Both the position numbers and the translations under genes were made by a program. This document shows positions 815 through 64,000 of a stretch of DNA of 64,000 nt, piece after piece; position 1 is the stretch's first letter; each line of letters begins with the position of its first letter. The DNA comes from an uncultured virus (IMG/VR IMGVR_UViG_3300035661_000052). Its lineage: Duplodnaviria; Heunggongvirae; Uroviricota; Caudoviricetes. The notes under the pieces are model-generated. The model did not search any database. It was not told the DNA's origin and saw only the letters and a list, made by a program, of their open reading frames with translations. The stretch lies in IMG/VR virus record IMGVR_UViG_3300035661_000052. One strand, 5' to 3'.

Positions 815-1273
815 TTATGGTGCAAATACGTTATCGTAAAAAATATAAAATCCAAGTCTGTTGGCCATAGACGCAATCACTATTTTTCGTAAAACAGCCC
901 GCCAGCTTTTCAAATCTGTCCGGTCTATAATCATGGTTAAAGTGAAGCTGCTTCTGTTAACAAATCTTGTCAGGTGGTAGCCATCTGTACCCGCAACCAA
1001 CAAACTTTTTGCAAATGGATAAGCAGCACGCAAATCCCCATTATCAAAGTCTTTATACTTACGCTTCCAACTGGTGTTATAATCCCAAAATGAGTGTCCC
1101 TTTCCCAATCCGTGTACCTGTATAGCCTGGTTAATCCCGTCCGCACTGCCTGCAATAAATTGCAATAACACCACCTGTTTATCATTCTTGCTAAAGAAGT
1201 GCTTTTTTACTGAGCGCTGCTGACATAAGCAACATGCTGGAAACAGCAATAGTATAATTATCAGTTTTTTCAT
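815..1273 (-). CDS. Hypothetical exported/membrane protein
   Basis: 152-aa ORF with signal-peptide-like N-terminus MKKLIIILLLFPACCLC/QQ and aromatic motifs WKRKYK and TDGYHL. Confidence 0.7.
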   Translation of the reverse strand: MKKLIIILLLFPACCLCQQRSVKKHFFSKNDKQVVLLQFIAGSADGINQAIQVHGLGKGHSFWDYNTSWKRKYKDFDNGDLRAAYPFAKSLLVAGTDGYHLTRFVNRSSFTLTMIIDRTDLKSWRAVLRKIVIASMANRLGFYIFYDNVFAP

Positions 1274-1283
1274 AAAATACTGT

Positions 1284-3833
1284 TCAAAAAATTACTACTC
1301 GTTTCAGTCTAATCTTATCAGTTGGACTTTTCACAGGCGAATTTCCATTAGCAAATAACACCGCACAGCTATAAGGCTGTAGTGTTATAAAATCATTGTA
1401 CGTTACCTGCTTAACATCCTTATATTGTAATCCTAAAAATCCTACGGTCTTTGGCGCATTCGTGTTATTTACTTCGAAGCGCAAATAAGTATCAGGGTTG
1501 GTCGTAGTTACAGAAGAAGTTTCATAAACCTGCACGTCTTCAACATATACTGTATTATTATCCTGTGAAAATTGCAAAAGAATGGCGCCGGTTGTAATGG
1601 TAGGTCCTGTCCAGTTGAGTACCATTTCATGCTGCTGTATGGTAGTATCAACTCCGTCACGAACATCAACAGAAGTTCCACTATAATCACCATACCATTT
1701 CTGGATATAACCACGTACTGTTGTGAATTTGTTACCCCTTGTCTTAAATCGCACAACGTAAGTAGTTCCGGTGTTAATCGCTCCCACAGTACTTAGTACG
1801 GTAGTTTCACTGTTAGACGCAACGGTTGACGTAATCAGCTTTAATGCTCCACCTGTTCCAAACTGATTTGTGTTATCCCAGCTTAATGTATGCACTGTTC
1901 CGATGCTTGAAGCTGTCCATCCTATTATGTTGCTTGTAAAAACACCATTCGTACACTTATCACTGCCTGTTGTTACAACAGTGTAATAAGGTATACTGAT
2001 TGGAGAGCCTACAGAAGTTGAGTTGTAAATCGGGTGGTCATTCTTCCATTTTTGTAATGTGTAAAATGTATTCTGCGTATTGCTGCTATTAACATGGTAG
2101 AACGGAAAGTTATTGAAAGGCATGGCGTAAATATTATTATTAATTGCTCCGATGCTGTCAAGATTTCCGGAAATATTGCTATGGTACATTAGTAATTGAT
2201 TGGGGGACTTTGCAAAAAATATATTGTTTGTGATGGTGTTGTATTTCGTGTTGTTGTACCCGTCGTCAAAATTAAATTGCCCACCGTAAGCAGTGTTATC
2301 ATTCACGTTAAAATTTCCGGAATTATAAACCGTGTTTCCGCTGAACGTGTTGTTTTGTGAAGCAGATATTGATAGCCCAATGAAACAGTCATAAACCGTA
2401 TTATTGAGAATATTTACCGCCAAGCTGGATGAATCTAAGTAAATCCCTTTGGCATGAGGGTTGTTTGGGAGTGTAGTTCCGCCGGGGGCGCCAACAGAGT
2501 TGTGGACGATATTACTATCAATATACACTCCGGTTGCCGCAGCCAATCCTCTTTGCCCGCCATTGTAAATTCCGCCTCCATCATTCTTTACAATGCAGAA
2601 ATAACTAACCTCATTCTTTCTTACAATGGTGTTATTCCTATTTTGGCGCAAGGTGATACCGTTGTAACCGATATAAGATAGATTGTTGTTTTTAATCAAT
2701 ACATTGTCGGAGCCTACAGCTATACCCGTGCTGCTGTTTCCGGCTGCATAAGTAGCATTTATCGGTGAAATCATGCCAGGATTTACTCCAACTCTTGTAA
2801 GGGTATTATTTATAAAAGTACTATTTGTGCAGCCTGTATAATAAACCTCATAGATACCGCACATATTTATATCAACGCCGGTGCAATTACTAATAGTCGG
2901 GTAAGTGCTGGTAGCATATTTGAACATTGAAATTCCACCGTAAGCAAAATCACAACTGTCAATATTTGTATAGTTAGCATAAACATTGTCAACCATCTCA
3001 CCGTTACTTCCAGTGAAATTTATGTTCCGAAATGTGATTCCAGTTTTTGTAGTTGGAGAAGTAAAAACTAAATTAACAAGCTTGTCAACTGTACTTACCT
3101 GGATAGTTCCAGGATTTCCAACACTGTACATTTGAATCTTTTTTGTACCGCTTGCATCATAATAATACCATTCATTTTGAGCATCCAAAGTTGCCGCTGC
3201 GTTCTGAATAAAATAACCGTTTCCATCGGTCAGATTGTTATTTGCTGTAGAGCTATAAGTTATCGTTGTGGTACTGTGATTAGTAATTGGCGCTCTCACA
3301 GTTGACCAATCAGCAACACGTATAACCACTTCTGCTCCTGTCCAGTTAGGCGTTCCTGTAAGAGTTGGATCAGTGATTGAAGTGTATGCGCTATGACTTG
3401 TATATACAGCATAACCTGCATTTGCAGTACCTGCATTAGGCCACCGACCCATAGGAATTAATGCTCCCCCCTTCACAACGACGCTCAACGTTGATAGTCC
3501 ACCTGGAACGGTTGCTTCCCAAATATTACCACTGATATTTGTCCAGCTTGAAATTGTTGTAAGGCCAGTAATTATGGGTTTTGCACCAGACCCGTAGGCT
3601 GCAAATGTTACATTACTCGCAGTTGGCGAAAGTGTGCCGGACCAAACCTCCCCACGTTTTAAATAGATGTTGTTACCCGCTGTTCCGGACAGCGTGTTAA
3701 TGACGCTGATTGTCTGCTTCGGTGATCCGATTGTACCTGCGTTAGCATCCAGACCATTCGTTGCGTCGAAGTAATAATCTGTCGCAAAAAGATGTGAAGA
3801 AACCAGTAGTAATATGCTTAGTAATCTTTTCAT
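1284..3833 (-). CDS. Right-handed parallel beta-helix protein (pectate lyase/tailspike-like) with C-terminal carbohydrate-binding-like domain and signal peptide
   Basis: 849 aa. N-terminus MKRLLSILLLVSSHLFA/TDYYFD..G.D.NAG, Asn-ladder repeats (IKNNNLSY, IDSNIVHN, ILNNTVYD), DGGGIY and GIYLD motifs, then a CBM-like region (NGVFTSNIIGW...VYVEDV). Confidence 0.8.
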   Translation of the reverse strand: MKRLLSILLLVSSHLFATDYYFDATNGLDANAGTIGSPKQTISVINTLSGTAGNNIYLKRGEVWSGTLSPTASNVTFAAYGSGAKPIITGLTTISSWTNISGNIWEATVPGGLSTLSVVVKGGALIPMGRWPNAGTANAGYAVYTSHSAYTSITDPTLTGTPNWTGAEVVIRVADWSTVRAPITNHSTTTITYSSTANNNLTDGNGYFIQNAAATLDAQNEWYYYDASGTKKIQMYSVGNPGTIQVSTVDKLVNLVFTSPTTKTGITFRNINFTGSNGEMVDNVYANYTNIDSCDFAYGGISMFKYATSTYPTISNCTGVDINMCGIYEVYYTGCTNSTFINNTLTRVGVNPGMISPINATYAAGNSSTGIAVGSDNVLIKNNNLSYIGYNGITLRQNRNNTIVRKNEVSYFCIVKNDGGGIYNGGQRGLAAATGVYIDSNIVHNSVGAPGGTTLPNNPHAKGIYLDSSSLAVNILNNTVYDCFIGLSISASQNNTFSGNTVYNSGNFNVNDNTAYGGQFNFDDGYNNTKYNTITNNIFFAKSPNQLLMYHSNISGNLDSIGAINNNIYAMPFNNFPFYHVNSSNTQNTFYTLQKWKNDHPIYNSTSVGSPISIPYYTVVTTGSDKCTNGVFTSNIIGWTASSIGTVHTLSWDNTNQFGTGGALKLITSTVASNSETTVLSTVGAINTGTTYVVRFKTRGNKFTTVRGYIQKWYGDYSGTSVDVRDGVDTTIQQHEMVLNWTGPTITTGAILLQFSQDNNTVYVEDVQVYETSSVTTTNPDTYLRFEVNNTNAPKTVGFLGLQYKDVKQVTYNDFITLQPYSCAVLFANGNSPVKSPTDKIRLKRVVIF

Positions 3834-3836
3834 AAA

Positions 3837-4754
3837 TTAGTTGTAAGCCATTGTTAATTGAATATCCCCCGCAACCAGCACGGTATTATCTAGTGCTGCC
3901 TGCAACTTTGTAATATTGAATCCGATACCTGTTGCGAATTTTAGGCCTACATCACTAATCGGTATATCTATGCTGCTGTTGGCAGGTATAGCCCACTCAT
4001 ACAGATTCGCATCGGTTCCAGTAACCGGCGCAGTTGCCTTATTAAACAGCCTAAAAAAGCAGGCATAAGCTGCATAATTGGTAAGGTGTATTGTATAAAT
4101 ATTTCCAGTTGAAGCCTTTAATAATGTTTGGTTATTTGATGCTGTTGCTGTATAGGTGTATACCGTTGTTCCATTATTAAAACTACCGGTATTAATGGCT
4201 GCCTGAACTTGCAAGTTCGGCCCATACGAACTCGTTGCTGTCAGCGACGGTGGCACTGCTGATGTTGTAGAATAGGTGCTAATCATTTGTACCCCCGTAG
4301 TTGTACCTGTGACAGCGGTCCCAAGTCTTACCCTTACAAATCTTGAAAGTAGCTGTCCTGAAAAACTCCGTGATGCTGTGGTTAAAGTATAGGTGGTAGT
4401 GGATGCTGCGGTTATGTTGTCAGTTACAAACCACTGGTAAGTATTAGCGGAGGATGAAGTGTCGGCGCTTTGTTCAAAAAACAATGTTCCAGCAGTTACC
4501 GTACCCGTTGCTACGAGTAAATTCATTCGAATTGTATTGTATATGCCGTTCCCTGGCAGCCTCGTGTCAATCCAATACCCGCCAAGTTCTTTAAGCATGA
4601 TATTGTCGTTAGCCACTGTCCTGCTGCCTAAGCCAACACTGTCTACTGGCTGATATACTTTTTTCCAAATTGCTGCGACTTCGTCAATATTTTGTGCAGA
4701 AGCAAAAAGTACAAAAAGAAGAAGCGATGTCGTTATTGTTATAATCTTACCCAT
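3837..4754 (-). CDS. Hypothetical beta-rich protein with signal peptide (fibre/adhesin-associated)
   Basis: 305 aa. MGKIITITTSLLLFVLFASA/Q start; Thr/Ser-rich; C-terminal domain resembles phage virion accessory modules. Confidence 0.65.
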   Translation of the reverse strand: MGKIITITTSLLLFVLFASAQNIDEVAAIWKKVYQPVDSVGLGSRTVANDNIMLKELGGYWIDTRLPGNGIYNTIRMNLLVATGTVTAGTLFFEQSADTSSSANTYQWFVTDNITAASTTTYTLTTASRSFSGQLLSRFVRVRLGTAVTGTTTGVQMISTYSTTSAVPPSLTATSSYGPNLQVQAAINTGSFNNGTTVYTYTATASNNQTLLKASTGNIYTIHLTNYAAYACFFRLFNKATAPVTGTDANLYEWAIPANSSIDIPISDVGLKFATGIGFNITKLQAALDNTVLVAGDIQLTMAYN

Positions 4755-6769
4755 GTTGAATTTGTGAATTTATATGTGAAAATTGATGTTTTAGAATTAG
4801 CAAAACTTGGTGTTAAATATTCAAACAACGTCTGCCCTGTGTTTGCGGATATAGTTAGCGCTGAAACAACAGGGTTATTAAAAGCTATTGTACCCCCAAA
4901 TATGATAGTTAGCGGTTGCCCTTCCTGCGGGTTGGCCGGTAAAGTAATTGTTAATGTAGATTGTAAATTTGATGGATTGTATTTCACAGTCTGTACACTA
5001 TCTGCCACTGTGTAAGTGCTTCCACTTGTAAGCGTAACAGATGCGCCATTAGCCCTAAAGCGACTGGAATCAACCGCAATAGAAGGGTATGTTTTACCCA
5101 GCGTAACATCGGTATAAGTGCTTACCAATATGCCATTACCTGCTTTTAAGCTGTCTCTGGCTGTGCTGTCTTTTAGTTGCTGAAGATTTACTGCATCGGT
5201 TGCAGATGTTGCCGTTGGAACGGTTACATGCCCGCTAAATGTAGGGTATGCGGAGGGTGCTTTTAAAGCACTATTTCCGTCTATTTTTTGTATAGCTTGT
5301 AAAATATTATCTGTACTTGCAACAGTGCCAGATCCCGGAGTATAGCCTGTCAATAATTTTGCAATTACTGCTGCGTTACTTATTGTTGCGGCTGCTGTTA
5401 CGTTTGCTGTTCCATCAATTGTTGGGCTGGTATAAATAACTTCCCCAGTTAATGATAAGGTTCTACCATTAGTCCATTTAGCTGCGCTTCCTGTCGTATT
5501 CTGATTGAATGTGGGAAAACTTGTTAATGCTGCCGCACTGCCTGTTGGTGTAAGGTAATCAGTACCAGCAACAGCGGCAGACATCGCAGCACCGTTGCCT
5601 TTTAAAAGCCCCGTTAAATTCGTTGTAATTGTAATGGCAGGCGTTGCCCCACCACTGCTACTACCGCTAAACCCATTCGCCGTAGTAACTGATACACCTG
5701 TAAGTGTACCCGCTGGTGTGGCTATCCAGCTCCGTACACCAGCGGTAGTGGATGAAAGTATATATCCGTTTGCTGCGGGATTACCCAATGCGGTTTCTGC
5801 ATCAGTAATTCCGTAACCGGCAATGGTAGTAGGTTTGCTGGTGAGCGATGAAAAAGTATGTGTATGCGCAAGTGCAGCCGCGTCTGTAATACCGTACCCG
5901 GCCAGCGTTGTAGGTGATCCTGTAATACTGCCCCATGCAGTGGATCCACTACCTGAAATAACCTGTGCTATTTTGTGAACTCTCCCGAGTATGTCAATAC
6001 TTAGGATACTATCAGTTGTGGCGCCTACAGCCAGGGGAGCTACTACTCTTAATGCATTTGAGTCAGTTGCTTCAATCTCCACTATATGTGACCAGGTTGG
6101 GGAGCCCCCAAAGTTGAATTTACCACTTCCCAAGGTTCCTAAAGTTAGCAGATCAAATCCATTCAAAGAACCGGGCGCCCTCAATGAGAGCTGGTAAGGA
6201 CCCGCAGATAGCAGGTAACTGGGCCCACTGAAAATTGATATGTCCTTGAAGTCGTTATTTATGTGTAAGGACATTGCAGAGAAGTCATAACTACCAAGCG
6301 TTACAGCATCGACACCAATCTTTACCCCGTTATTAAATACAGATGGATAAGTGCTTCCAGATGTTGGACTTTGAAAAGCCAGGCTGTGTGTACCGAGGTA
6401 GACGTTTCTGTTCGCCGCTATGTTACCGTCTGCTGTGTATAGGGTACTAACAGTTTCGGTTGGTACAATATCCGCTACCTGTTTTCTCAGGTTAACACCT
6501 GCTATTCCCCCTACAAACTGCCAAACACGTATATCATTAGTTGTAGACCCGTATATATAGGCTATCTCCCCAATATGCCTTCGAGTAGGTGGTACTGTTG
6601 CTAAAAAATCTGCAGTATCTGCGTATGGTACATGCTTATTATCTACAATTTTATACTGCTTGCCATCAACAGACCTTTGAGCACTTACAGCAATATCTTG
6701 ATTTAATGTAAGTTGTGCTGAAGTAAAGAGAGATGTCAATGTAAATACTGCTAATAGTACTTTTTTCAT
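4739..6769 (-). CDS. Tail-fibre-like protein with N-terminal signal peptide
   Basis: 676 aa. Two phage tail-fibre repeats (WGSITGSPTTLAGYGITDA, FSSLTSKPTTIAGYGITDA), a neck motif DAVNLQQL, and a MKKVLLAVFTLTSLFTSA/Q start. Confidence 0.75.
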   Translation of the reverse strand: MKKVLLAVFTLTSLFTSAQLTLNQDIAVSAQRSVDGKQYKIVDNKHVPYADTADFLATVPPTRRHIGEIAYIYGSTTNDIRVWQFVGGIAGVNLRKQVADIVPTETVSTLYTADGNIAANRNVYLGTHSLAFQSPTSGSTYPSVFNNGVKIGVDAVTLGSYDFSAMSLHINNDFKDISIFSGPSYLLSAGPYQLSLRAPGSLNGFDLLTLGTLGSGKFNFGGSPTWSHIVEIEATDSNALRVVAPLAVGATTDSILSIDILGRVHKIAQVISGSGSTAWGSITGSPTTLAGYGITDAAALAHTHTFSSLTSKPTTIAGYGITDAETALGNPAANGYILSSTTAGVRSWIATPAGTLTGVSVTTANGFSGSSSGGATPAITITTNLTGLLKGNGAAMSAAVAGTDYLTPTGSAAALTSFPTFNQNTTGSAAKWTNGRTLSLTGEVIYTSPTIDGTANVTAAATISNAAVIAKLLTGYTPGSGTVASTDNILQAIQKIDGNSALKAPSAYPTFSGHVTVPTATSATDAVNLQQLKDSTARDSLKAGNGILVSTYTDVTLGKTYPSIAVDSSRFRANGASVTLTSGSTYTVADSVQTVKYNPSNLQSTLTITLPANPQEGQPLTIIFGGTIAFNNPVVSALTISANTGQTLFEYLTPSFANSKTSIFTYKFTNSTWVRL

Positions 6770-55758: not shown

Positions 55759-56244
55759 TCAATCATTTAACTCCTTCTGTGTAACATACACGGTTTTTAG
55801 TTTTAACTTACGATCCTCAAACATAGTAAGTCTATTTCCTGCACAATAGAAACGTGGATTGTACCAAAATGAGTTATCCTTCTTATTTCTAATACTAATC
55901 ACATCATGCCTGATAAGTTCGCGTATAGTATCTTCATACTTTCGTTTAGATACCTTCTCTGGATGTCGGAGTTCTTTTATCTTATCCAAAGAAAGAATCA
56001 CATACTCATAAGAGTCATTGGTAAAATACTGAATAGTTAAGAACATATCTCTGGCATAAATTGTCATCTTTAAGATAACATCTCTATATTTCTTGGCAGT
56101 ATACATCCTGGTATAATCCTCAGCTTCAGTTTCAAAGCCATAAAGTATTTTAGAATTCTTACCTTTGATAGGTATAATATCAGTGACATTTTTAATATAC
56201 TTCACTACTAAAGGAGCAGTGAATGGATTGGTTGGTTGATACAT
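55759..56244 (-). CDS. RepL-like replication initiator/winged-helix protein
   Basis: 161 aa; HTH-like segment SKRKYEDTIRELIRHDVI followed by FWYNPRFYCAGNR, the (Y/W)xxNP...G.R signature of RepL-like proteins reported in crAss-like phages. Confidence 0.7.
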   Translation of the reverse strand: MYQPTNPFTAPLVVKYIKNVTDIIPIKGKNSKILYGFETEAEDYTRMYTAKKYRDVILKMTIYARDMFLTIQYFTNDSYEYVILSLDKIKELRHPEKVSKRKYEDTIRELIRHDVISIRNKKDNSFWYNPRFYCAGNRLTMFEDRKLKLKTVYVTQKELND

Positions 56245-56429
56245 TTGAGTATGATTTGAATAAAGGTATGTATTTTATGCAGTAATTCTACACGATTTAA
56301 AAAAGTGTGTAGAATCTCTGCATATCAAATCAGCTATAATGCACTGGTAGTAAGCATTTCAGAAATATCCTTCCCTAAATAGTACATTGAGGGAAGCCAA
56401 CAATTATTATCACTTTCAATTACACTCCA

Positions 56430-56813
56430 ATGAGTAATCAAAATCCATTTGTAACAGGAGAATATATTCCACCGGTAAATAAGGTGCCTCAAGACAGGGC
56501 AGATAAAATAACTAATGAAATACTTGAAACACTTACATCTGACCAGTTATTAACTGTAATAGCCGAAGTAATTGGACCTTCCAGTAACAGTGTACTTGTA
56601 AGAGTACAAAGTTTAGAATATGGTGTAGTGGATGTATCTATAGATTTGAACATTATATTCTTACTACTACTTAAAACAATCCCTTGCAACAATCGCAAAC
56701 AAGTAGAAAAATTATTAATGGGAAATAAAGTTTGGCCAAATCATATCTACTTATTCGATGAAGATGAGTCAATAGCTGAACCAGATTATCCACCAATGTG
56801 TGTGACAAGTTAG
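56430..56813 (+). CDS. Hypothetical protein
   Basis: 127-aa ORF with an AT-rich Bacteroidota-type initiation region, followed by a terminator. Confidence 0.6.
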   Translation: MSNQNPFVTGEYIPPVNKVPQDRADKITNEILETLTSDQLLTVIAEVIGPSSNSVLVRVQSLEYGVVDVSIDLNIIFLLLLKTIPCNNRKQVEKLLMGNKVWPNHIYLFDEDESIAEPDYPPMCVTS

Positions 56814-56837
56814 CACATTTTAAATATTTATAGTTTC

Positions 56838-56864
56838 AAGCCTCACCTAACCGTGGGGCTTTTT
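56838..56864 (+). terminator. Intrinsic terminator
   Basis: AAGCCTCAC-CTAACC-GTGGGGCTT followed by TTT. Confidence 0.7.
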
Positions 56865-57383
56865 CAATTCCATCCACTTAATTCCATAACAACTTAAATC
56901 AACTCCAATGAGCGCAATTATCAATGGCACACTCATGAGCACAACTGATGCTCAGAGCTGGGACTTTCAATAGTCCACTTAATTCACAACATCTGCTGGT
57001 CAATGAGTAGCAGATGTTTACCTTCACAATTCAATCAATTAACATAGGAGCAGACAAACATTTAATATGGAAAAGAAACCACGTAAACCAATGATTAAAG
57101 CTATCCGCAAATGTCTCAGATGGAACCATGACTTCCAAAGCTGAAGCCTATTAAGACTCAACTCACAGGTACAAAGACACCTGTTATTGATATTGTTCTC
57201 AGGGGACAGATAATTACCCGGCTCTAACCTCTAATCCAAACGTCTTCCTATGAGCACTCCTTAATTACACGAATCTCTTAATTCTTAATGGTACAGGTAC
57301 TCTGTATAAATGAATGTTCGCACACATCTGCCGTGAGTTACGGACTCCGGCAGATATATTCCTCAAATTAAAAACCCCGCTAT

Positions 57384-57806
57384 ATGCAAAATCTATTCAA
57401 CTGGGTTACCGCACACCCATACAAAGCCGGTACATTACTATGTGTAATGATCATATTCGCAGTATCAATGTGGTACTTCTTCGCCAGCAGAGCCATTCCC
57501 CTTGAAGAGGAACAATTAGATGACTATGAGTCACCCGAGCCTGCTGTGCAGAAAGAGAGGAACTACATCAATATACATGCAGGCTGCTTAGGCACATGCT
57601 GTGTGGTTTATGAATATACGCCTGGGATTCCTACATTGAGTGGGCATCCTATTCGATTTGGAGAGATCAATCTGATCAGGGTAAAACTGTCTTTTGGACT
57701 CACATCCAGTGAGGACATTCTTCCCCTGCTTACATTTCATCAAAGAGATTTGTTAGCTCAGAGTGTTTATAAAGAACATGAATTAAGAGCATTATTACAG
57801 AATTAA
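57384..57806 (+). CDS. Hypothetical membrane-anchored protein
   Basis: 140 aa; N-terminal hydrophobic segment AGTLLCVMIIFAVSMWYFFA. Confidence 0.65.
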   Translation: MQNLFNWVTAHPYKAGTLLCVMIIFAVSMWYFFASRAIPLEEEQLDDYESPEPAVQKERNYINIHAGCLGTCCVVYEYTPGIPTLSGHPIRFGEINLIRVKLSFGLTSSEDILPLLTFHQRDLLAQSVYKEHELRALLQN

Positions 57807-57820
57807 TTTACTAACCCAGT

Positions 57821-57936
57821 AAACCGGAGAGAGGGATCGTAGCCTGATAGGATATGTGAAAAAGTGATGTGAGTAAATGTATCCGAGGGATAGGATTTTG
57901 TGGAGGCACCACAGTCCCTCTCTCTCTTTCGGTTTT
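57821..57936 (+). ncRNA. Candidate small structured RNA
   Basis: Long closing stem AAACCGGAGAGAGGGA / TCCCTCTCTC..TCGGTTT with internal helices GGATAT/GTATCC and TGTGG/CCACA. Confidence 0.45.
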
Positions 57937-57950
57937 TAAAACTTAATGAC

Positions 57951-58265
57951 ATGCTAACTAATGAACAAAAGATTGAAGCTTATAAGTATGTGCTTGAATG
58001 TCTGGCAGATGATAGAAATCTGAAAGAATACTCCGGTATCTGCTGGTATTTAAAAAAATGAGTGAATGGCAGTACCGACTATATTATACATGATTTTTTA
58101 AGACTTCCAGAATTCTTTCCTGAGTTTTTTATATTACCTCAAGTAAGAAATCTATTTGAATTCTGGTGGCCGAAAACAGAAGAAGGTTACCAGGAACGTG
58201 TAAAAGCTATTAATTCAATTCTTAAAACTCTTAAATCCACAGCAGATGTCGCAATTATTAAGTAA
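57951..58265 (+). pseudogene. Paralog A of a small FPEF/FWWP family, interrupted by in-frame TGA at 58059-58061
   Basis: MLTNEQKIEAYKY...ICWYLKK*VNG...FFPEFF...FWWP; aligns end to end with the 59059 gene. Confidence 0.75.
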
Positions 58266-58539
58266 AGAAGAAAGACTTGCTGCCTATGAGAAGGCACTGG
58301 CTTGGTATACAGCAGATGAACAGAACAATACTGGACTGTGTGTTGTTTTAGGAAGATCTCATTGGAGAAATTTTATGGATTCTCCACTAACATACTGGTA
58401 TAATATGGAAGAGTACTTTCCAGAAATATTTATTCAGGGACATCCTTACCCTCATAATACAAGCTATGAAAAGACAAGAAATAGACGTATTTTCTGGCTT
58501 GAAAATGCAATAATGCAATTAACACAACCTATAAATTAA
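58246..58539 (+). CDS. Paralog B of the FPE family, hypothetical
   Basis: 97 aa; LSKEERLAAY...GLC...YFPEIF...RIFWL. Confidence 0.7.
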   Translation: MSQLLSKEERLAAYEKALAWYTADEQNNTGLCVVLGRSHWRNFMDSPLTYWYNMEEYFPEIFIQGHPYPHNTSYEKTRNRRIFWLENAIMQLTQPIN

Positions 58540-58540
58540 T

Positions 58541-58828
58541 ATGGCTAGAGGACCCGTTGGGCATACATGCCCTGATATTGATGCAGTGATAAATGGTATT
58601 TCATACGCTATGAGTGATTTGAGAGGACTTGAATCTATTTTAGAGAGTTTACGTAGTGACAACGATGCATTACGTACTTGGGGATCTGAATGGGAAAATA
58701 AGGCCAATGATACAATTAGTGATCTACAATCAGACTTAAAAGATGCCAAAGAACAAATAGAATCACTCAAAACAAAACATGATGAACTCAAGGAAGAGCT
58801 TGAACGTCACAAATTATCTAATTACTAA
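58541..58828 (+). CDS. Hypothetical coiled-coil protein
   Basis: 95 aa; PVGHTCPDID...LESLRSDNDALRTWG followed by heptads. Confidence 0.75.
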   Translation: MARGPVGHTCPDIDAVINGISYAMSDLRGLESILESLRSDNDALRTWGSEWENKANDTISDLQSDLKDAKEQIESLKTKHDELKEELERHKLSNY

Positions 58829-58838
58829 ATCAATTAAC

Positions 58839-59057
58839 ATGATAACAGGAACAATCTTAAAGAATGGAGTGATCAAACTGTTCCTCACGGGAACAGACTC
58901 CATTGATGAGGCCATACTCAAGGAGTTGAATGGTGCTCATTGCAAATTAGTCACGGAAAATTTCAGGCTTGGAGATAAAAGTATCACTGGTGCACTTATC
59001 ATTGAAAAGCCTGTGAACGGAACTGGAAATGATTCTTCATTTAAAACTGCTGAATAA
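58839..59057 (+). CDS. Hypothetical protein
   Basis: Likely start ATG at 58839 (MITGTILKNG), 72 aa. Confidence 0.6.
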   Translation: MITGTILKNGVIKLFLTGTDSIDEAILKELNGAHCKLVTENFRLGDKSITGALIIEKPVNGTGNDSSFKTAE

Positions 59058-59058
59058 T

Positions 59059-59328
59059 ATGATACTAACTAATAAACAAAAGAAAGCTGCCTATCAATTT
59101 ACTATAAATGAGCTTAATCGTGGGTATAAAAGTGTATGTGGGAGACTGCAAACTTGGTTAAATATCAATTTACAGTTGCACTTTAATACTTGCGCAGAAG
59201 TTCTTAACTGCTTTCCAGAGTTTTTAGTGTTAAAACCTAAAGATACATACATAGATGGCTTTTGGTGGCCAAGTATTGATAAAAAAATTAGAATTAAGCA
59301 TCTTGAATCAATTATCTCAAATCTTTAA
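59059..59328 (+). CDS. Paralog C of the FPEF/FWWP family, hypothetical
   Basis: Likely start 59059; MILTNKQKKAAY...VCGRLQTWLN...CFPEFL...FWWP...RIKHL. Confidence 0.72.
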   Translation: MILTNKQKKAAYQFTINELNRGYKSVCGRLQTWLNINLQLHFNTCAEVLNCFPEFLVLKPKDTYIDGFWWPSIDKKIRIKHLESIISNL

Positions 59329-59330
59329 TC

Positions 59331-59768
59331 ATGGAAAGCAGAATATCATCGGAACATGTGTACGACTATTTGCTGAGCGGTAGAGTACACGCCAACTTCT
59401 ACAATATACTTACTAACAATCAGCTTCACGTCAACATCAACCGTAAAAATGCAAGCCTGGTGTGGTATGTGTACGCTGTGGATAAAAGTTACCTTGGGTA
59501 CATTCGTGGAGATGTGTTTATCTGGGCAACACCAGGCAGTGGATTCGTATCATCAAACGGTAAGCTTGCAATGCAGAGATTTAGCTGGATCTGGAAACAG
59601 ATTGTGGCTAAAACTATACCTGATACTATGTACATATTACATGATGGTAGCTGTGGACATTGCGGTCGTACACTGTCAGACGCGACAAGTCTCAAGGTTG
59701 GCATTGGCCCATCATGCAGGAAGAAACTTGGAATCGTATATTCATCACAAACTCAACTTGAACTTTAA
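59331..59768 (+). CDS. DUF6011-like zinc-finger protein
   Basis: C-terminal HDGSCGHCGRTLSDATSLKVGIGPSCRKK signature. Confidence 0.8.
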   Translation: MESRISSEHVYDYLLSGRVHANFYNILTNNQLHVNINRKNASLVWYVYAVDKSYLGYIRGDVFIWATPGSGFVSSNGKLAMQRFSWIWKQIVAKTIPDTMYILHDGSCGHCGRTLSDATSLKVGIGPSCRKKLGIVYSSQTQLEL

Positions 59769-59770
59769 TA

Positions 59771-60124
59771 ATGGAACTGATACCAGCAGATGATACTATC
59801 AAATCCGAAGTAGTTATTCCTGCAAAGACAGAACATAAGTTCATCGGTACGCTTACACCACATCCAGGGCACACCTGTTATCAGTTCAATCTTATAACTA
59901 AGAAGATTACGCTTGCTGTATTTGAAACAACCACTTCTAATCTGAGTGGAAAAAACGGGCGTAAGCTTATCGTTCAACCTGACTGCATCTACTGTACTGC
60001 GTTGAATCCGAAGAATGCTATCAAGAGATTTTTCAAGATGCTGCAACTGAATGCGGCTATTCAAATGATTAAACCTAAAACCGATGAGAAAGATCTTAAT
60101 CTCAGTAAAACAGAAACTCAATAA
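59771..60124 (+). CDS. Hypothetical protein
   Basis: 117 aa; PHPGH and ALNPKNAIKR motifs. Confidence 0.65.
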   Translation: MELIPADDTIKSEVVIPAKTEHKFIGTLTPHPGHTCYQFNLITKKITLAVFETTTSNLSGKNGRKLIVQPDCIYCTALNPKNAIKRFFKMLQLNAAIQMIKPKTDEKDLNLSKTETQ

Positions 60125-60590
60125 TGCTATTCAACGTAGTATATTGGTGAATTGTCCTCAAGGGCATCATGATTGGGGATTCTCCGTACAAGATAGGTGG
60201 AATAAGCCTAAAACAAGAAAAATAGCTAAGGTTCAAAGGATTTGCTATGAGTGCATTCGAATTAGACAACGAAATAAAATGACTCGGGAAAAAGCCAAGG
60301 TGAAAAATGCCAGAGATAATAAAATTCGTAACCTTAAAATGAAAAGAGATCCTGAATATGCTCAAAAAATACGAACTTCATTTGTCAGAAGAAGTACTAA
60401 TGCATGTAAAATTTTAAATGATGGTTATATCAGACAATACATAAGGAAAACTTTTGCTGAGAAGAGTTTAAAAGCTTTAGAGATACCAGATCAACTGGTG
60501 GAGATTACCAGATATTATTTACAACTAAATAGAACCTTTAATGACAAAAGCACAATTAATAGGGAAGTCACAAGCCCAACACATCCGTGA
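60084..60590 (+). CDS. Basic Cys/His zinc-binding protein
   Basis: 168 aa; CPQGH...CYEC, Lys/Arg-rich middle; start uncertain. Confidence 0.6.
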   Translation: MRKILISVKQKLNNAIQRSILVNCPQGHHDWGFSVQDRWNKPKTRKIAKVQRICYECIRIRQRNKMTREKAKVKNARDNKIRNLKMKRDPEYAQKIRTSFVRRSTNACKILNDGYIRQYIRKTFAEKSLKALEIPDQLVEITRYYLQLNRTFNDKSTINREVTSPTHP

Positions 60591-60768
60591 AGTTTCATAC
60601 CAAGATGGAATGAAGTATAGAGAACTGGCTTTGAAAACTGGAAGTAAAGATCATGCAATGTTTGCGATTTTAAATTTCAGAATTTGGATTCGAGCTGCTG
60701 TAATAGATCTTATTGAGACTAAACAGTTAGCTTCTGGTACAGTGAAACCAATCAAACAATTAAAATGA
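60541..60768 (+). CDS. Hypothetical protein
   Basis: 75 aa, overlapping both neighbours in operon fashion. Confidence 0.6.
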   Translation: MTKAQLIGKSQAQHIREVSYQDGMKYRELALKTGSKDHAMFAILNFRIWIRAAVIDLIETKQLASGTVKPIKQLK

Positions 60769-60974
60769 ACTGGAATCTATTTAATCCCACCGGCGTAACG
60801 GGAGGAGATGATGAAGATCTCCTCTACAGATCCGAAATCACTGGTCCACAGGGTGCCAGATATGAATTACTACGGGAGAAAACTCACATCCATGCTGACG
60901 TGGAAAAAGCTAAAAGGTATTTAAGAAGAAACTTTGATGTAGTGAGTATCCAAATAATTCATGAAACTGATTAA
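60765..60974 (+). CDS. Hypothetical protein
   Basis: 69 aa; ATGA overlap with the upstream gene. Confidence 0.6.
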   Translation: MNWNLFNPTGVTGGDDEDLLYRSEITGPQGARYELLREKTHIHADVEKAKRYLRRNFDVVSIQIIHETD

Positions 60975-60997
60975 CTTTGTAAATCAATCACAACTCT

Positions 60998-61621
60998 GCG
61001 GGTAGGTGGATAACAAGATACCGGCCCCCATGCCAGGCTCACTGAAAGCAGTTTAAAATGTATCCATGATTGAATTTGTTGCAATGAGCCATGCTTTTAC
61101 CTACGAAGACTAAGCAAACCTCAAGTGTCTGGGATGCTAAAACCTACCCAGTTAAACTATGAGTTTAGCTTAGCCAGTGGTTTTAAGACCAGTGTTCAAG
61201 GTGATGATGCCAGTACTATTGAGTTATCCCCTTAGATCAGAAATGAACCTATCGTAAAGGGCATACTTCACTTTATCCTGATTGAAGTTATCGTAAGATG
61301 GAGGTCAAAATGAGTTCTTTAAGGAGCAGTACCATATATGTAAGTGGTACGTCCCGGTAACGGCACAAACTGGAGCCGAAAGCAAAGTCGAGCATACCTC
61401 TTTGGATATGAGCAATCATTGAGAAAGTCGCTAAGCCTCGATCGGGTGCCCAACGTTAGGGCCGCATGTACAAGAACGACGTAAGAGATTGGTGGATGTT
61501 AGTAGAAAACCGAGGCTGGCCAGCCGGAGTATCAAAAACATACACCTGCAAAACGGGTGAGATCCGTACGTTGGTGAAAACTCTCTCAATGCCCGGTGTC
61601 CCAGTGATGGGTATCCGGGCA
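60998..61621 (+). ncRNA. Candidate large, highly structured non-coding RNA (~620 nt), class unassigned
   Basis: Gap without credible ORFs in a gene-dense operon, GC-richer than its flanks by eye. More than 12 complementary helices, GNRA tetraloops on the + strand (GTAA x2, GTGA), and possible pseudoknots. Confidence 0.65.
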
Positions 61622-61912
61622 CTAACCACACACTTACTGTTCAAATCACACGTAAATTGGAAATTATCGTCCTTAATGTCACACCTATGCCATTCAGAAA
61701 AGCAATTGAAAGAGCACTTACTGAAATTCACCAAGTTCAAGCACTCAACATACAAGCCGCATAGAAATTCATCAATGCACGCAGACATCTTGAGGAGTTG
61801 TTTGCAAACGTTCAACCTCGCAGATCTCCTAATGTTTTGACGGATACGGAGATCACTCGGCCTCTGGAGAAGAAGCTAAAGAGATAATTTATTCACCATT
61901 TAATTAACATTG

Positions 61913-62401
61913 ATGCAAACATTATTAAAATCTCACAATGCTTGTGAGGAGGCCAGAGAATGGGCCCTAAATAAATCCTGGAAACAAATCTTTAAAACTT
62001 GTCATAGAGGAGATTGGTTTCTATGGCTATTTAAAAAGACTAATCCAAATGACTTACAGTTACTGACTTTAGCAAAAGGACATTGCGCTAATACTGTTAG
62101 ACATCTAATGAAAGATGCTCGAAGTATTAAAGCTGTTGATATTTCTATTGGTTTTGGGGAAGGTAAAAATACAAGAGAAGAACTTAGTGCTGCTGGTGCT
62201 GATGCTTATGCTGCTTATGCTGGTGCTGATGCTTATGCTGGTGCTGATGCTTATGCTGCTTATGCTGCTGCTTATGCTGCTGATGCTTATGCTGCTATTT
62301 CTAATAGAGTAAATACTATGAAAGCCAATCAACTTTTAACAGCAAATATCTGTCGGCAATATTTACCGTTAGAAGTTTGGAACATACCTCAGGACTTATA
62401 A
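61913..62401 (+). CDS. Phage protein with Imm5-like helical region and Ala-rich repeat
   Basis: HNACEEAREWA...CHRGDWFLWL...DARSIKAVDI...TREELSAA, then ADAY/AAY repeats. Confidence 0.7.
   Translation: MQTLLKSHNACEEAREWALNKSWKQIFKTCHRGDWFLWLFKKTNPNDLQLLTLAKGHCANTVRHLMKDARSIKAVDISIGFGEGKNTREELSAAGADAYAAYAGADAYAGADAYAAYAAAYAADAYAAISNRVNTMKANQLLTANICRQYLPLEVWNIPQDL
62189..62296 (+). repeat. Tandem GCT/GAT/TAT/GGT codon repeat (ADAYA units)
   Basis: GCTGATGCTTATGCT occurs four times, interspersed with GCTTAT/GGT variants, in frame. Confidence 0.9.
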
Positions 62402-62473
62402 TCTATAATAGACGATAAGTTTTCTATAGAGGAGACCAAGAAAATAATTTACTTAATACTTAATTAACAATTA

Positions 62474-63685
62474 ATGGAATTTCCAACACTATACAAACGC
62501 ACTAAGACAGGTGCGATACAACAATGGTCTGTCTTTGTCACAATTGGTTTAGCGGGAGCAATTATTATTAAAAGAGCAGGTCAACTTAATGGTACACTTA
62601 CTGAACACAGAGAAGTAATATCTGTAGGTAAGAACATAGGTAAGAGTAATGAAACCACTCCTTTACAGCAGGCAGAAGCACAGGCTCAATCTGACTGGAC
62701 AAAAAAACATGATGAAGGATATAAGAGTTTAAATGATTTGGACATTGTATTATGTACTGATAAAATTCATTTTCCAGGATTGTATATGTATCCAGGATGT
62801 GGTATTATGTTTATGAATTTGGAGTATTCATTGAATCAAACTTTACCAAAATTTAATTCGGATGCTGCTGGAAATGCAAAACCGATGCTCGCGAAGCCCG
62901 TAGACTGGAAGAAGGTTACATACCCATGCTATGTGCAACCAAAACTGGATGGTGTACGGTGTTTGATGATTGTGAAATCATATCATCTTACAGCGGATAT
63001 AACTTTTCTAAGTCGGAGTGGTAAAGAGTATACAACACTTAATCACATTAAAGATGATGTTCTCAATTATATCGCCGGTAGTGAGCAAGAGTTTATTTTG
63101 GACGGGGAGATATATTCAGAAAATCTAAGTTTCCAGGAAATTGTATCTGCTGTAAAGAAGCAACGACCGGAGTCACTAAAACTTCACTTTCGTGCCTACG
63201 ACATTGTAAATGATAAGAAGCAACATCAGCGCATTGAACAGGTTCGTGAATTAATTGATCTAATTGATTCAAAGTATATCCAGTATGTAATCACAATTAC
63301 AGCTGCTGTTAAAGATGATGTCACTCATCACCATGATAAGTGGGTATCTGAAGGAAATGAAGGCGCTATGATCAGACACTACAATGGTATCTATGGACAA
63401 GGCCAACGTTCATCTGACTTACTGAAAGTGAAAGAATTTGATGAGACTGAGTTTGAGTTCAAGTGTTTTGAACAAGGACAACGTGAAGAAGATCTCATTG
63501 CTGTATGTGAAACTCTTGAGAAGAAAGAGTTCCGTGCAAAGATGATTGGTAACAAACTATCTAAAGCTACAATGCAAACTGAGTGTGGTGAGCTTCTGGG
63601 TACTCAACTTACAGTGAAACATTTCGGTTGGACTACTGATGGTCTCCCACGTTTCCCGATTGGTAAATCATTTCGTGACTATTAA
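62474..63685 (+). CDS. ATP-dependent DNA ligase
   Basis: 403 aa; PMLA, motif I QPKLDGVRC, LDGEIY, FRAYDI, EGAMIR, LLKVK; C-terminal OB-like PRFP. Confidence 0.95.
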   Translation: MEFPTLYKRTKTGAIQQWSVFVTIGLAGAIIIKRAGQLNGTLTEHREVISVGKNIGKSNETTPLQQAEAQAQSDWTKKHDEGYKSLNDLDIVLCTDKIHFPGLYMYPGCGIMFMNLEYSLNQTLPKFNSDAAGNAKPMLAKPVDWKKVTYPCYVQPKLDGVRCLMIVKSYHLTADITFLSRSGKEYTTLNHIKDDVLNYIAGSEQEFILDGEIYSENLSFQEIVSAVKKQRPESLKLHFRAYDIVNDKKQHQRIEQVRELIDLIDSKYIQYVITITAAVKDDVTHHHDKWVSEGNEGAMIRHYNGIYGQGQRSSDLLKVKEFDETEFEFKCFEQGQREEDLIAVCETLEKKEFRAKMIGNKLSKATMQTECGELLGTQLTVKHFGWTTDGLPRFPIGKSFRDY

Positions 63686-63695
63686 TACGCAGCAG

Positions 63696-63971
63696 ATGAT
63701 ACGATATGACATATACGATCAGCAACTCAATCCAGGTGACTTCATCTGCTGTATAGTGAGAGGACAGTTCTCAGCAGCAAGGATAGCATCTATTAGTTTG
63801 AAAGGTACTATTCACATCAATCCCTGGAATGACCAGTCAAAGACATACCACAGCGTTGTAAGGCAACTGCGAGGATACAACATTATTAAAACAGCGGGGA
63901 TGCCCGTACATCAATTTACTTTATTCAAAACAGATAATTATGCTGGCAAGAAACTTTTGGAATCAGCTTAA
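63696..63971 (+). CDS. Hypothetical protein
   Basis: Likely start ATG at 63696 (MIRYDIYDQQLNPGD), 91 aa. Confidence 0.6.
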   Translation: MIRYDIYDQQLNPGDFICCIVRGQFSAARIASISLKGTIHINPWNDQSKTYHSVVRQLRGYNIIKTAGMPVHQFTLFKTDNYAGKKLLESA

Positions 63972-64000
63972 AGAAATCATAGAACTCCCATTCGAATTGG

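Follow-up and report, generated by a model that had tools for sequence, protein, structure and literature searches.

For one crAss-like phage, long non-coding RNAs encoded in the early region have already been published. In the preprint on phage phi14:2 (Drobysheva et al., bioRxiv 10.1101/2020.03.07.982082), two long stretches between genes, g004-g005 and g005-g006, are described as being transcribed rightward above most genes and as staying abundant, and the authors class them as long non-coding RNAs whose function is unknown. According to the sequence record NC_021806 we read these regions as 2905-3589 and 3911-4601. We analysed a comparable locus in an uncultured Caudoviricetes virus (IMG/VR record IMGVR_UViG_3300035661_000052), of which a stretch of 64,000 nucleotides (nt), called the window below, was studied; positions are counted from its first letter. 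Like phi14:2, the window has a long (~0.7 kb) intergenic stretch among small rightward early genes, and a first reading made from the letters alone (the sequence-only reading) had proposed there, at 60998-61621 on the + strand, an ornate RNA of about 620 nt that possibly represents an undescribed class. Our analysis of the sequence suggests that this gap probably gives rise to a folded + strand RNA of approximately 600-640 nt, and sequence comparison identifies its terminal hairpin as a module common to other phage non-coding regions and not private to the window RNA. That we are dealing with a new large phage RNA is plausible, and supported in part.

The non-coding stretch is 682 nt long (60975-61656, + strand) and extends from the stop of a 69-amino-acid (aa) gene, at 60974, to the next protein-like + strand open reading frame (ORF), which begins at 61657. 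The ORFs inside it are short or odd (36, 46 and 124 aa), and we identified no credible ORF under code 11 or under the alternatives that we tried, TAG read as glutamine and code 4, neither of which opens a frame. A codon-usage log-odds score trained on the phage's own genes is negative for all six frames in 8 of the 11 windows starting at 60960-61560, the three exceptional windows giving small positive values (+3.9, +0.5/+0.4 and +0.9 bits), and the genes flanking the gap score positively in their own frames. The negative codon score and the lack of an ORF under three codes indicate that the ORF-free gap, which the sequence-only reading had put at more than 600 nt, is real. Its G+C content is 0.43-0.50, as against 0.30-0.39 in the local early-region flanks and 0.39-0.48 in the late genes of the phage, so that the rise holds relative to those local flanks only.

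The signal within the gap lies on the + strand. When GNRA hairpins with at least three Watson-Crick pairs are counted, there are five on the + strand, compared with 0.40 +/- 0.63 in shuffled sequences (none of 1000 as high), and the minus strand has none; for the phage's genes the sense strand carries 0.36-0.50 of these hairpins per 624 nt. Ranking the whole window allows for the region having been chosen for such loops: among 1,268 window-by-strand positions over the 64 kb, all five counts of four or more overlap the gap on the + strand, and the next best count is three. This agrees with the earlier observation that GNRA loops favour the + strand. The sequence-only reading had also suggested that the folding energy be compared with that of shuffled controls. 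The minimum free energy of 60998-61621 (+) is -184.8 kcal/mol, against -170.5 +/- 6.0 in shuffles (z -2.38; none of 80 as low). This z lies below that of all 14 coding controls, equally long windows taken from this phage, for which z ranges from -1.45 to +1.03; on the minus strand z is -1.60, with 6 of 80 shuffles as low.

The terminal hairpin belongs to a module at 61582-61630 (+), which is supported by covariation among 11 copies and by a leave-one-out score. It is built of a 7-bp outer stem (61590-61596/61615-61621), a 3x3 internal loop (UGU/UAU), a 4-bp inner stem (CCCA/UGGG), a GUGA loop and, after the stem, a C-N-A in which the C never varies and the A hardly does. The hairpin family is defined by two models, R1 and R2, the model having 49 positions. 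In the pattern scans the outer stem, internal loop and GUGA loop were fixed and the inner stem was left free; the inner stems recovered in this way differ and stay complementary (CCCA/UGGG, AGGC/GCUU, GCCG/CGGC, GAGA/UCUC and GUGA/UCGC). In the 11 aligned copies 95.0% of 121 cells are paired and 9 of the 11 pairs have changed on both sides (0 of 500 shuffles), a count biased by the choice of some copies by eye as hairpins; moving the partner by 1-3 columns as a control leaves 21-44% paired. In L041_d and L165_e, which occupy homologous positions in alignment A2, the whole outer stem has been exchanged compensatorily. The G-U pairs lie on the sense strand in every case read, and each of the 12 copies has the same orientation as the genes next to it, being on their sense strand. 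The leave-one-out model gives the window copy 46.8 bits (E 2.1e-10), the next best score in the window being 12.4 bits, and a copy outside the training set, from a Danxiaibacter flavus contig (L194), scores 48.4 bits. The window copy falls within the family as defined, including its location on the sense strand of a non-coding stretch, so that the terminal hairpin drawn in the sequence-only reading at 61590-61621 is both real and conserved.

A single copy is present in the window. The complete relative G004, whose large terminase (TerL) is 71% identical to that of the window phage, has two, one ~130 nt upstream of its transfer-messenger RNA (tmRNA) gene and the other directly after a methyltransferase-like gene. 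L041 (IMG/VR) and L165 (a metagenome) carry four strong copies each. The copies lie within ORF-free regions that are homologous to each other, measure 929 and 1,150 nt and are flanked by small phage genes; these regions also have a sense-strand GNRA excess and end in hairpins that, read by eye, resemble intrinsic terminators. The remaining copy is found in the 60-kb D. flavus assembly contig, 3' of tRNA-like genes and before a terminator-like hairpin. We did not find the module in the relatives G002 and G003, in phi14:2, or in 150 other sampled Bacteroidota genomes, in each of which 40 candidates were scored. The pattern scan of IMG/VR yielded 9 stretches, with a fully complementary inner stem at five loci (six matches); that of metagenomes yielded 23 stretches, with 4/4 inner pairs in three matches (L165, and L169, which is L041's contig); and that of genomes yielded 15 stretches, one of them strong (L194) and the others at 22.8 bits or less. 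Fifteen of the metagenome matches were discarded as copies of one human-gut coding sequence with 1/4 inner pairs.

What the module-bearing loci have in common seems to be confined to the module. No protein is common to them among the ORF pairs compared, except for G007 with L165, and outside the module +/- ~15 nt the window RNA has no significant similarity to the other module loci. A profile of L041 and L165 used with nhmmer on the window recovers the hairpin only (E 0.15), a 21-mer conserved in L041 and L165 matches only L041's own contig, and L041 has no match in Rfam. Some apparent likenesses were rejected. The 15-mer GCGGGTAGNTGGATA, common to the window and L041 (E 0.32), occurs in at least 116 IMG/VR stretches, almost all of them chance matches in coding sequence; the resemblance seen in L074 and L080 sits in coding sequence of the other strand; and a permuted three-block likeness to L041 seen by eye is not significant.

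In the body of the RNA, upstream of the module, the local helices of the 5' half are predicted with pair probabilities of 0.58-1.00, with the exception of CCG-GUAA-CGG (0.03). The 5' domain (61002-61104, + strand like all elements given here) has a 9-bp helix, GUAGGUGGA/UUUACCUAC, enclosing GGCUCA/UGAGCC, with pair probabilities of 0.78 and 0.99 and a z of -2.37 for the 150-nt window at 61000. It is followed by a long hairpin at 61110-61173, CUAAGC/GCUUAG enclosing CUGGG/CCCAG (0.99; z -2.12 for the 150-nt window at 61100), and by a GNRA hairpin, UCA-GAAA-UGA, at 61237-61246 (0.81). At 61265-61299 a hairpin ACUUCA/UGAAGU precedes the GNRA hairpin AUC-GUAA-GAU (0.73 and 0.58), at 61329-61363 a hairpin GUACCA/UGGUAC (1.00) precedes the exceptional CCG-GUAA-CGG, and a further GNRA hairpin, AUGA-GCAA-UCAU, is found at 61408-61419 (0.65). 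As a catalogue of complementary sequence the sequence-only reading is accurate: its nine helix pairs and 11 motifs all lie where it had placed them, seven of the nine helices pairing fully and the other two in 9 of 10 positions.

The absence of coding capacity, the + strand GNRA excess, a stability somewhat above that of shuffles and coding controls, and the covarying 3' hairpin together lead us to read the locus as a folded + strand RNA of ~0.6 kb, produced early, with a 3' end defined and protected by the module and an action in trans. We prefer this reading tentatively, and would put its chances at a little less than even; transcription, processing, stability and action in trans we infer. 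Early transcription would produce the RNA, as part of the operon transcript or by way of the promoter-like TAACTTTG at 60972. As no intrinsic terminator follows the RNA, its 3' end would arise by cleavage, which may take place beside the terminal module, and the module would then protect the end. By analogy with the two early long non-coding RNAs of phi14:2, the body might accumulate as a stable RNA. Its action in trans could then be to bind a protein of the host or the phage, as a platform or as a decoy, and the module would be the conserved recognition site.

Several results weigh against this reading. The number of complementary stems is no more than chance: there are 40 perfect Watson-Crick stems of at least 6 bp, compared with 32.8 +/- 5.4 in dinucleotide shuffles (4 of 40 as high), and 10 of at least 7 bp, compared with 7.0 +/- 2.6 (6 of 40 as high). 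The 3' third (61418-61590, +) contains the long-range and crossing helices of the sequence-only reading, and these lack support. The four long-range helices (61418/61581, 61434/61511, 61491/61537 and 61450/61568) have a mean pair probability of 0.03 or less, as do the two pairings that had been called alternative, in a thermodynamic ensemble that is nested and places pseudoknots outside the model, so that the crossing pairs are unsupported and not disproved. The ornate long-range architecture that had been proposed therefore finds no backing, its stems occurring at chance frequency and its helices being missing from the ensemble. Sliding 150-nt windows reach z values of -2.4 to -1.7 at 61000-61249 and 61500-61649 only, and those within 61350-61599 have z of +0.65 to +1.8, so this third folds no better than shuffles. 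To these come the bias in the covariation count described above, and the position of the module near the 5' side of the non-coding unit in G004 and L194, which means that in the window it may begin a downstream unit instead of ending the RNA.

The distribution of the body points in the same direction. It is known from identical copies only, in two IMG/VR contigs and in four sequencing runs, all of DNA, which show no variant in 60400-62190. Searches with blastn and megablast of 50,697 phage records, among them phi14:2, gave no match either for the RNA or for 56000-64000, and no diverged homologue of the body was found in these records, in the contigs of relatives, by profile search or in the runs. 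Since only identical copies turned up, the ~600-nt body does not warrant the claim of a new class. The contigs of relatives selected by TerL (71-90% identical) were searched whole. BLAST in five of them recovered the hairpin only, in G004 (E 0.0023) and G005 (E 9.3e-4), apart from two chance matches of 17-18 nt; in both relatives the 31 nt in common with the window are the terminal hairpin, at the syntenic place. G002 (TerL 78%) keeps the neighbouring genes and has, after a 72-aa homologue, methyltransferase-like and tRNA-like genes without the body. The relatives found through the neighbouring 75-aa and 69-aa proteins (G002, L202 and L203) show no sizeable gap following the gene, and in L202 and L203, which are more distant loci, other genes come directly downstream. 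Finally, one low-depth contig of run X3 (depth 3.8, compared with 8.1) joins 60566 to 61678 across the 6-nt repeat GTCACA. The 1,111 nt that it skips take in the whole 69-aa gene and the greater part of the 75-aa gene, along with the RNA and its hairpin, and X3 contigs also break near both positions. This contig is weak evidence that the gap region may be dispensable.

According to the chief rival of a folded, trans-acting RNA, the module alone has a function, namely as a signal in cis for processing, stability or antitermination that serves the downstream genes, and the ~600 nt before it are an operon leader or spacer and not a separate RNA with a fold of its own. We consider this unlikely, yet deserving of serious weight. 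It fits the restriction of homology with other phages to the module +/- ~15 nt, the position of the module in G004 and L194 50-60 nt into short non-coding units, before a tmRNA, gene or terminator, the lack of a + strand terminator-like site in or directly after the gap, the lack of a folding signal in the 3' third and the relatives without the body. It leaves unexplained, however, the four further GNRA hairpins, which occur on the + strand only, as well as the z of -2.4 for the whole stretch, and a spacer of 600 nt would be unusual where neighbouring genes abut or overlap. It is also conceivable, and in our view rather improbable, that the body is non-functional, a recent insertion or a decayed gene beside a conserved hairpin that is possibly a small mobile palindromic element. 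A GNRA excess that is strand-specific and the highest in the window speaks against this, as does the occurrence of 12 of 12 module copies on the sense strand of neighbouring genes. We also considered that the methyltransferase-like gene found here in G002 and G004 might have left a remnant, and rejected this at the protein level, the best tblastn match having an E of 0.35 over 11 residues and two short DNA matches that had suggested it being due to chance. On the other side stand the singleton sequence, the stem count at chance, the variant lacking 60567-61677 in one run and the presence of the module in phages without common neighbouring proteins (only G007 and L165 match). We have little confidence in a more far-reaching proposal, that the window RNA, the L041 and L165 RNAs, the G004 tmRNA leader and the L194 element form an undescribed group of modular RNAs with 1-5 GUGA hairpins, which would mimic tRNA minihelices and recruit host enzymes. 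Under this proposal the 7-bp stem and C-N-A would imitate the tRNA acceptor minihelix, and the hairpin would recruit the host's tRNA/tmRNA processing or CCA-adding machinery, thereby either releasing and stabilising large GNRA-rich bodies or occupying those enzymes during takeover. This would account for the company that the module keeps with tmRNA genes and odd tRNA-like genes in the early regions of Bacteroidota phages.

The sequence-only reading had seen none of the hallmarks of known large RNAs and had suggested a search of Rfam, and this search agrees with it: nothing in the 64-kb window reaches the gathering score of any Rfam 15 family (including GOLLD, ROOL, RNase P RNA, tmRNA, group I/II introns, OLE, raiA and HEARO), and at E <=10 there are only five chance-level matches in 60700-62000 (IS009, snoRNAs and a lncRNA), all far below gathering scores. 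We think it very unlikely that the element is a self-splicing group I or II intron, or the remnant of one, interrupting a gene. In its favour are the many GNRA loops, the frequency of introns in some crAss-like phages according to PMC7886860, and a TerL match that spans 3,123 nt in the relative L018 but 2,097 nt in the window, a hint that L018 has an insertion. For the catalytic core of group I introns (P3-P9 with the P7 guanosine site), the Rfam model is insensitive to some subgroups, and a fit by hand onto the crossing helices gave the wrong spacing of the P7 and P3 strands. No Rfam intron family matches the locus at E <=10, however; the upstream 69-aa gene is complete, on which 20 of 20 relatives agree; no split conserved gene is visible, since the small flanking ORFs have no tblastn match in the 50,697 phage records; and an endonuclease ORF is absent from the stretch. 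The least probable of the explanations, to which we assign hardly any weight, is a strongly derived tmRNA or tRNA-like gene. It is suggested by the company of such genes elsewhere, namely the G004 tmRNA (72.3 bits) with the module ~130 nt upstream, the phi14:2 tmRNA within one of the long intergenic regions, a tRNA-like gene of G002 at the syntenic place (32.6 bits, anticodon CUA, ~91-nt insertion) and a tRNA-like gene before the module in L194 (35.7 bits). Yet ARAGORN finds neither a tRNA nor a tmRNA in the window, no such Rfam family matches at E <=10, and on reading the sequence we saw neither a tRNA-like T-loop nor an acceptor pairing between the RNA ends; the tmRNAs of G004 and phi14:2 were detected by the same tools.

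The wider setting of the gap is that of a crAss-like phage, as the sequence-only reading had held. Genes for the large terminase, portal and major capsid proteins (PHROG E 1e-68 to 1e-94) are found on the window's minus strand, as are giant ORFs, the longest of 4,694 aa, and TerL is ~30% identical to that of gut crAss-like phages and Flavobacterium phages. From ~57900 onward there are small rightward genes, in our reading an early/replication block, which abut or overlap, the block ending with an ATP-dependent DNA ligase. Protein relatives indicate that the 69-aa gene upstream of the gap (60765-60974, +) is complete and not a 5' exon: its product has 20 relatives (47-69% identical, 66-87 aa), all ending within a few residues of the same C-terminal point. 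Downstream, a small ORF with a weak coding score (61657-61887, +) encodes 35 aa, and readthrough of its in-frame TAG at 61762-61764 would give a protein-like product of 76 aa; the window's long genes can be read without recoding, and a search of the window for tRNAs gave none.

The sequence TAACTTTG (60972-60979, +), some 20 nt ahead of the first helix, fits TAnnTTTG, the '-7' promoter element of Bacteroidota, and it may be a promoter of the RNA's own. The + strand contains four matches to this element in 56000-64000 and 33 in the whole window, and upstream of it there is a single TTTG, 39 nt off, which is poor spacing. A motif like TTATTCAC-N2-3-TTTAA(A)C occurs 10-20 nt before start codons in the window (61888-61913) and in G004, the sites besides that of the window being L023 ~1384-1410 (-) and L027 ~6411-6440 (-); in these phages it possibly serves as a promoter or in translation initiation. 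An Ala/Tyr/Asp-rich repeat of the GCTGATGCTTATGCT type at 62190-62300 (+), inside a 163-aa ORF (61910-62401), is hypervariable or widely shared: in the four DNA runs dozens of other contigs pile up on it at 80-95% likeness, with a summed depth of up to 843 compared with ~30 in the flanks, many variants and rearranged joints. The long TerL match mentioned above, at L018 1001-4123 in G003 (TerL 90%), probably reflects an insertion of ~1 kb in the terminase gene of that phage, either an intein or an intron.

A number of tRNA and tmRNA genes in related phages were encountered along the way. The G004 tmRNA is located at L027 6486-6831 (-), in the early region, and its tag, according to ARAGORN, ends in AIAA*. 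That of phi14:2 (L183 4031-4500, +; 46 bits, compared with an Rfam gathering score of 47; tag ending in AMVA*) lies within the g005-g006 region, described in the preprint as a highly expressed long non-coding RNA. The G002 tRNA-like gene (L026 911-1072, -; Rfam gathering score 29) has an anticodon loop UUCUAAU, whose anticodon would read UAG, and its insertion separates the anticodon arm from the T-arm. Long insertions and GGTTCGAATCC T-loops mark further tRNA-like genes at L194 ~1020-1165 and ~1270-1370 (+) and at L203 ~3470-3660 (+); the one in L194 recognised by the Rfam tRNA model has an anticodon region of 39 nt instead of the expected 11. All of these tRNA-like genes, including that of G002, are missed by ARAGORN. 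In the first phi14:2 region, ~110 nt (L183 3256-3364) are 74-75% identical to unannotated stretches at ~131.5-132.0 kb of the Cellulophaga phages phi4:1 and phi17:2, which are unrelated 145-kb phages, a possible shared RNA element; that region matches Cellulophaga phages only and not the window.

Among crAss-like phages, one cultured phage has been reported to produce abundant early long non-coding RNAs, and in the literature consulted, with subscription papers and the supplements of the phi14:2 preprint outside its scope, we found neither a description of the hairpin module or the window RNA nor anything specific on structured or non-coding RNA in crAss-like phages beyond that preprint. The covarying module links large ORF-free regions of several unrelated Bacteroidota phages with tmRNA and tRNA-like genes. 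Its 49-position model provides a searchable handle for gathering such RNAs, and the module itself is a defined element on which the binding of proteins or the processing of RNA can be tested. Should the ~600-nt body turn out to be a folded RNA, the very short list of large phage RNAs would grow by one.

The window RNA differs from the phi14:2 RNAs in that it has no blastn similarity to them, in that the module was not found in phi14:2, in that the second phi14:2 region holds a tmRNA, and in being known from DNA alone; the first phi14:2 region nevertheless has three GNRA hairpins, compared with 0.56 expected (8 of 300 shuffles). GOLLD and ROOL are families that rest on covariation in many sequences, whereas the window RNA is one sequence without an Rfam match, and what it has in common with them is the 0.5-0.8 kb size class, the location in a phage, the many GNRA-capped hairpins and the lack of a known function at discovery. 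The tmRNA genes of crAss-like phages (G004 and phi14:2) are likewise early-region RNA genes, and the leader of the G004 tmRNA carries the module, but the window RNA has neither a tRNA-like domain nor a tmRNA call. The L041 and L165 regions have several modules and terminator-like ends where the window has one module and no terminator, and they resemble the window RNA in carrying the same module, in their sense-strand GNRA excess and in their position between small phage genes.

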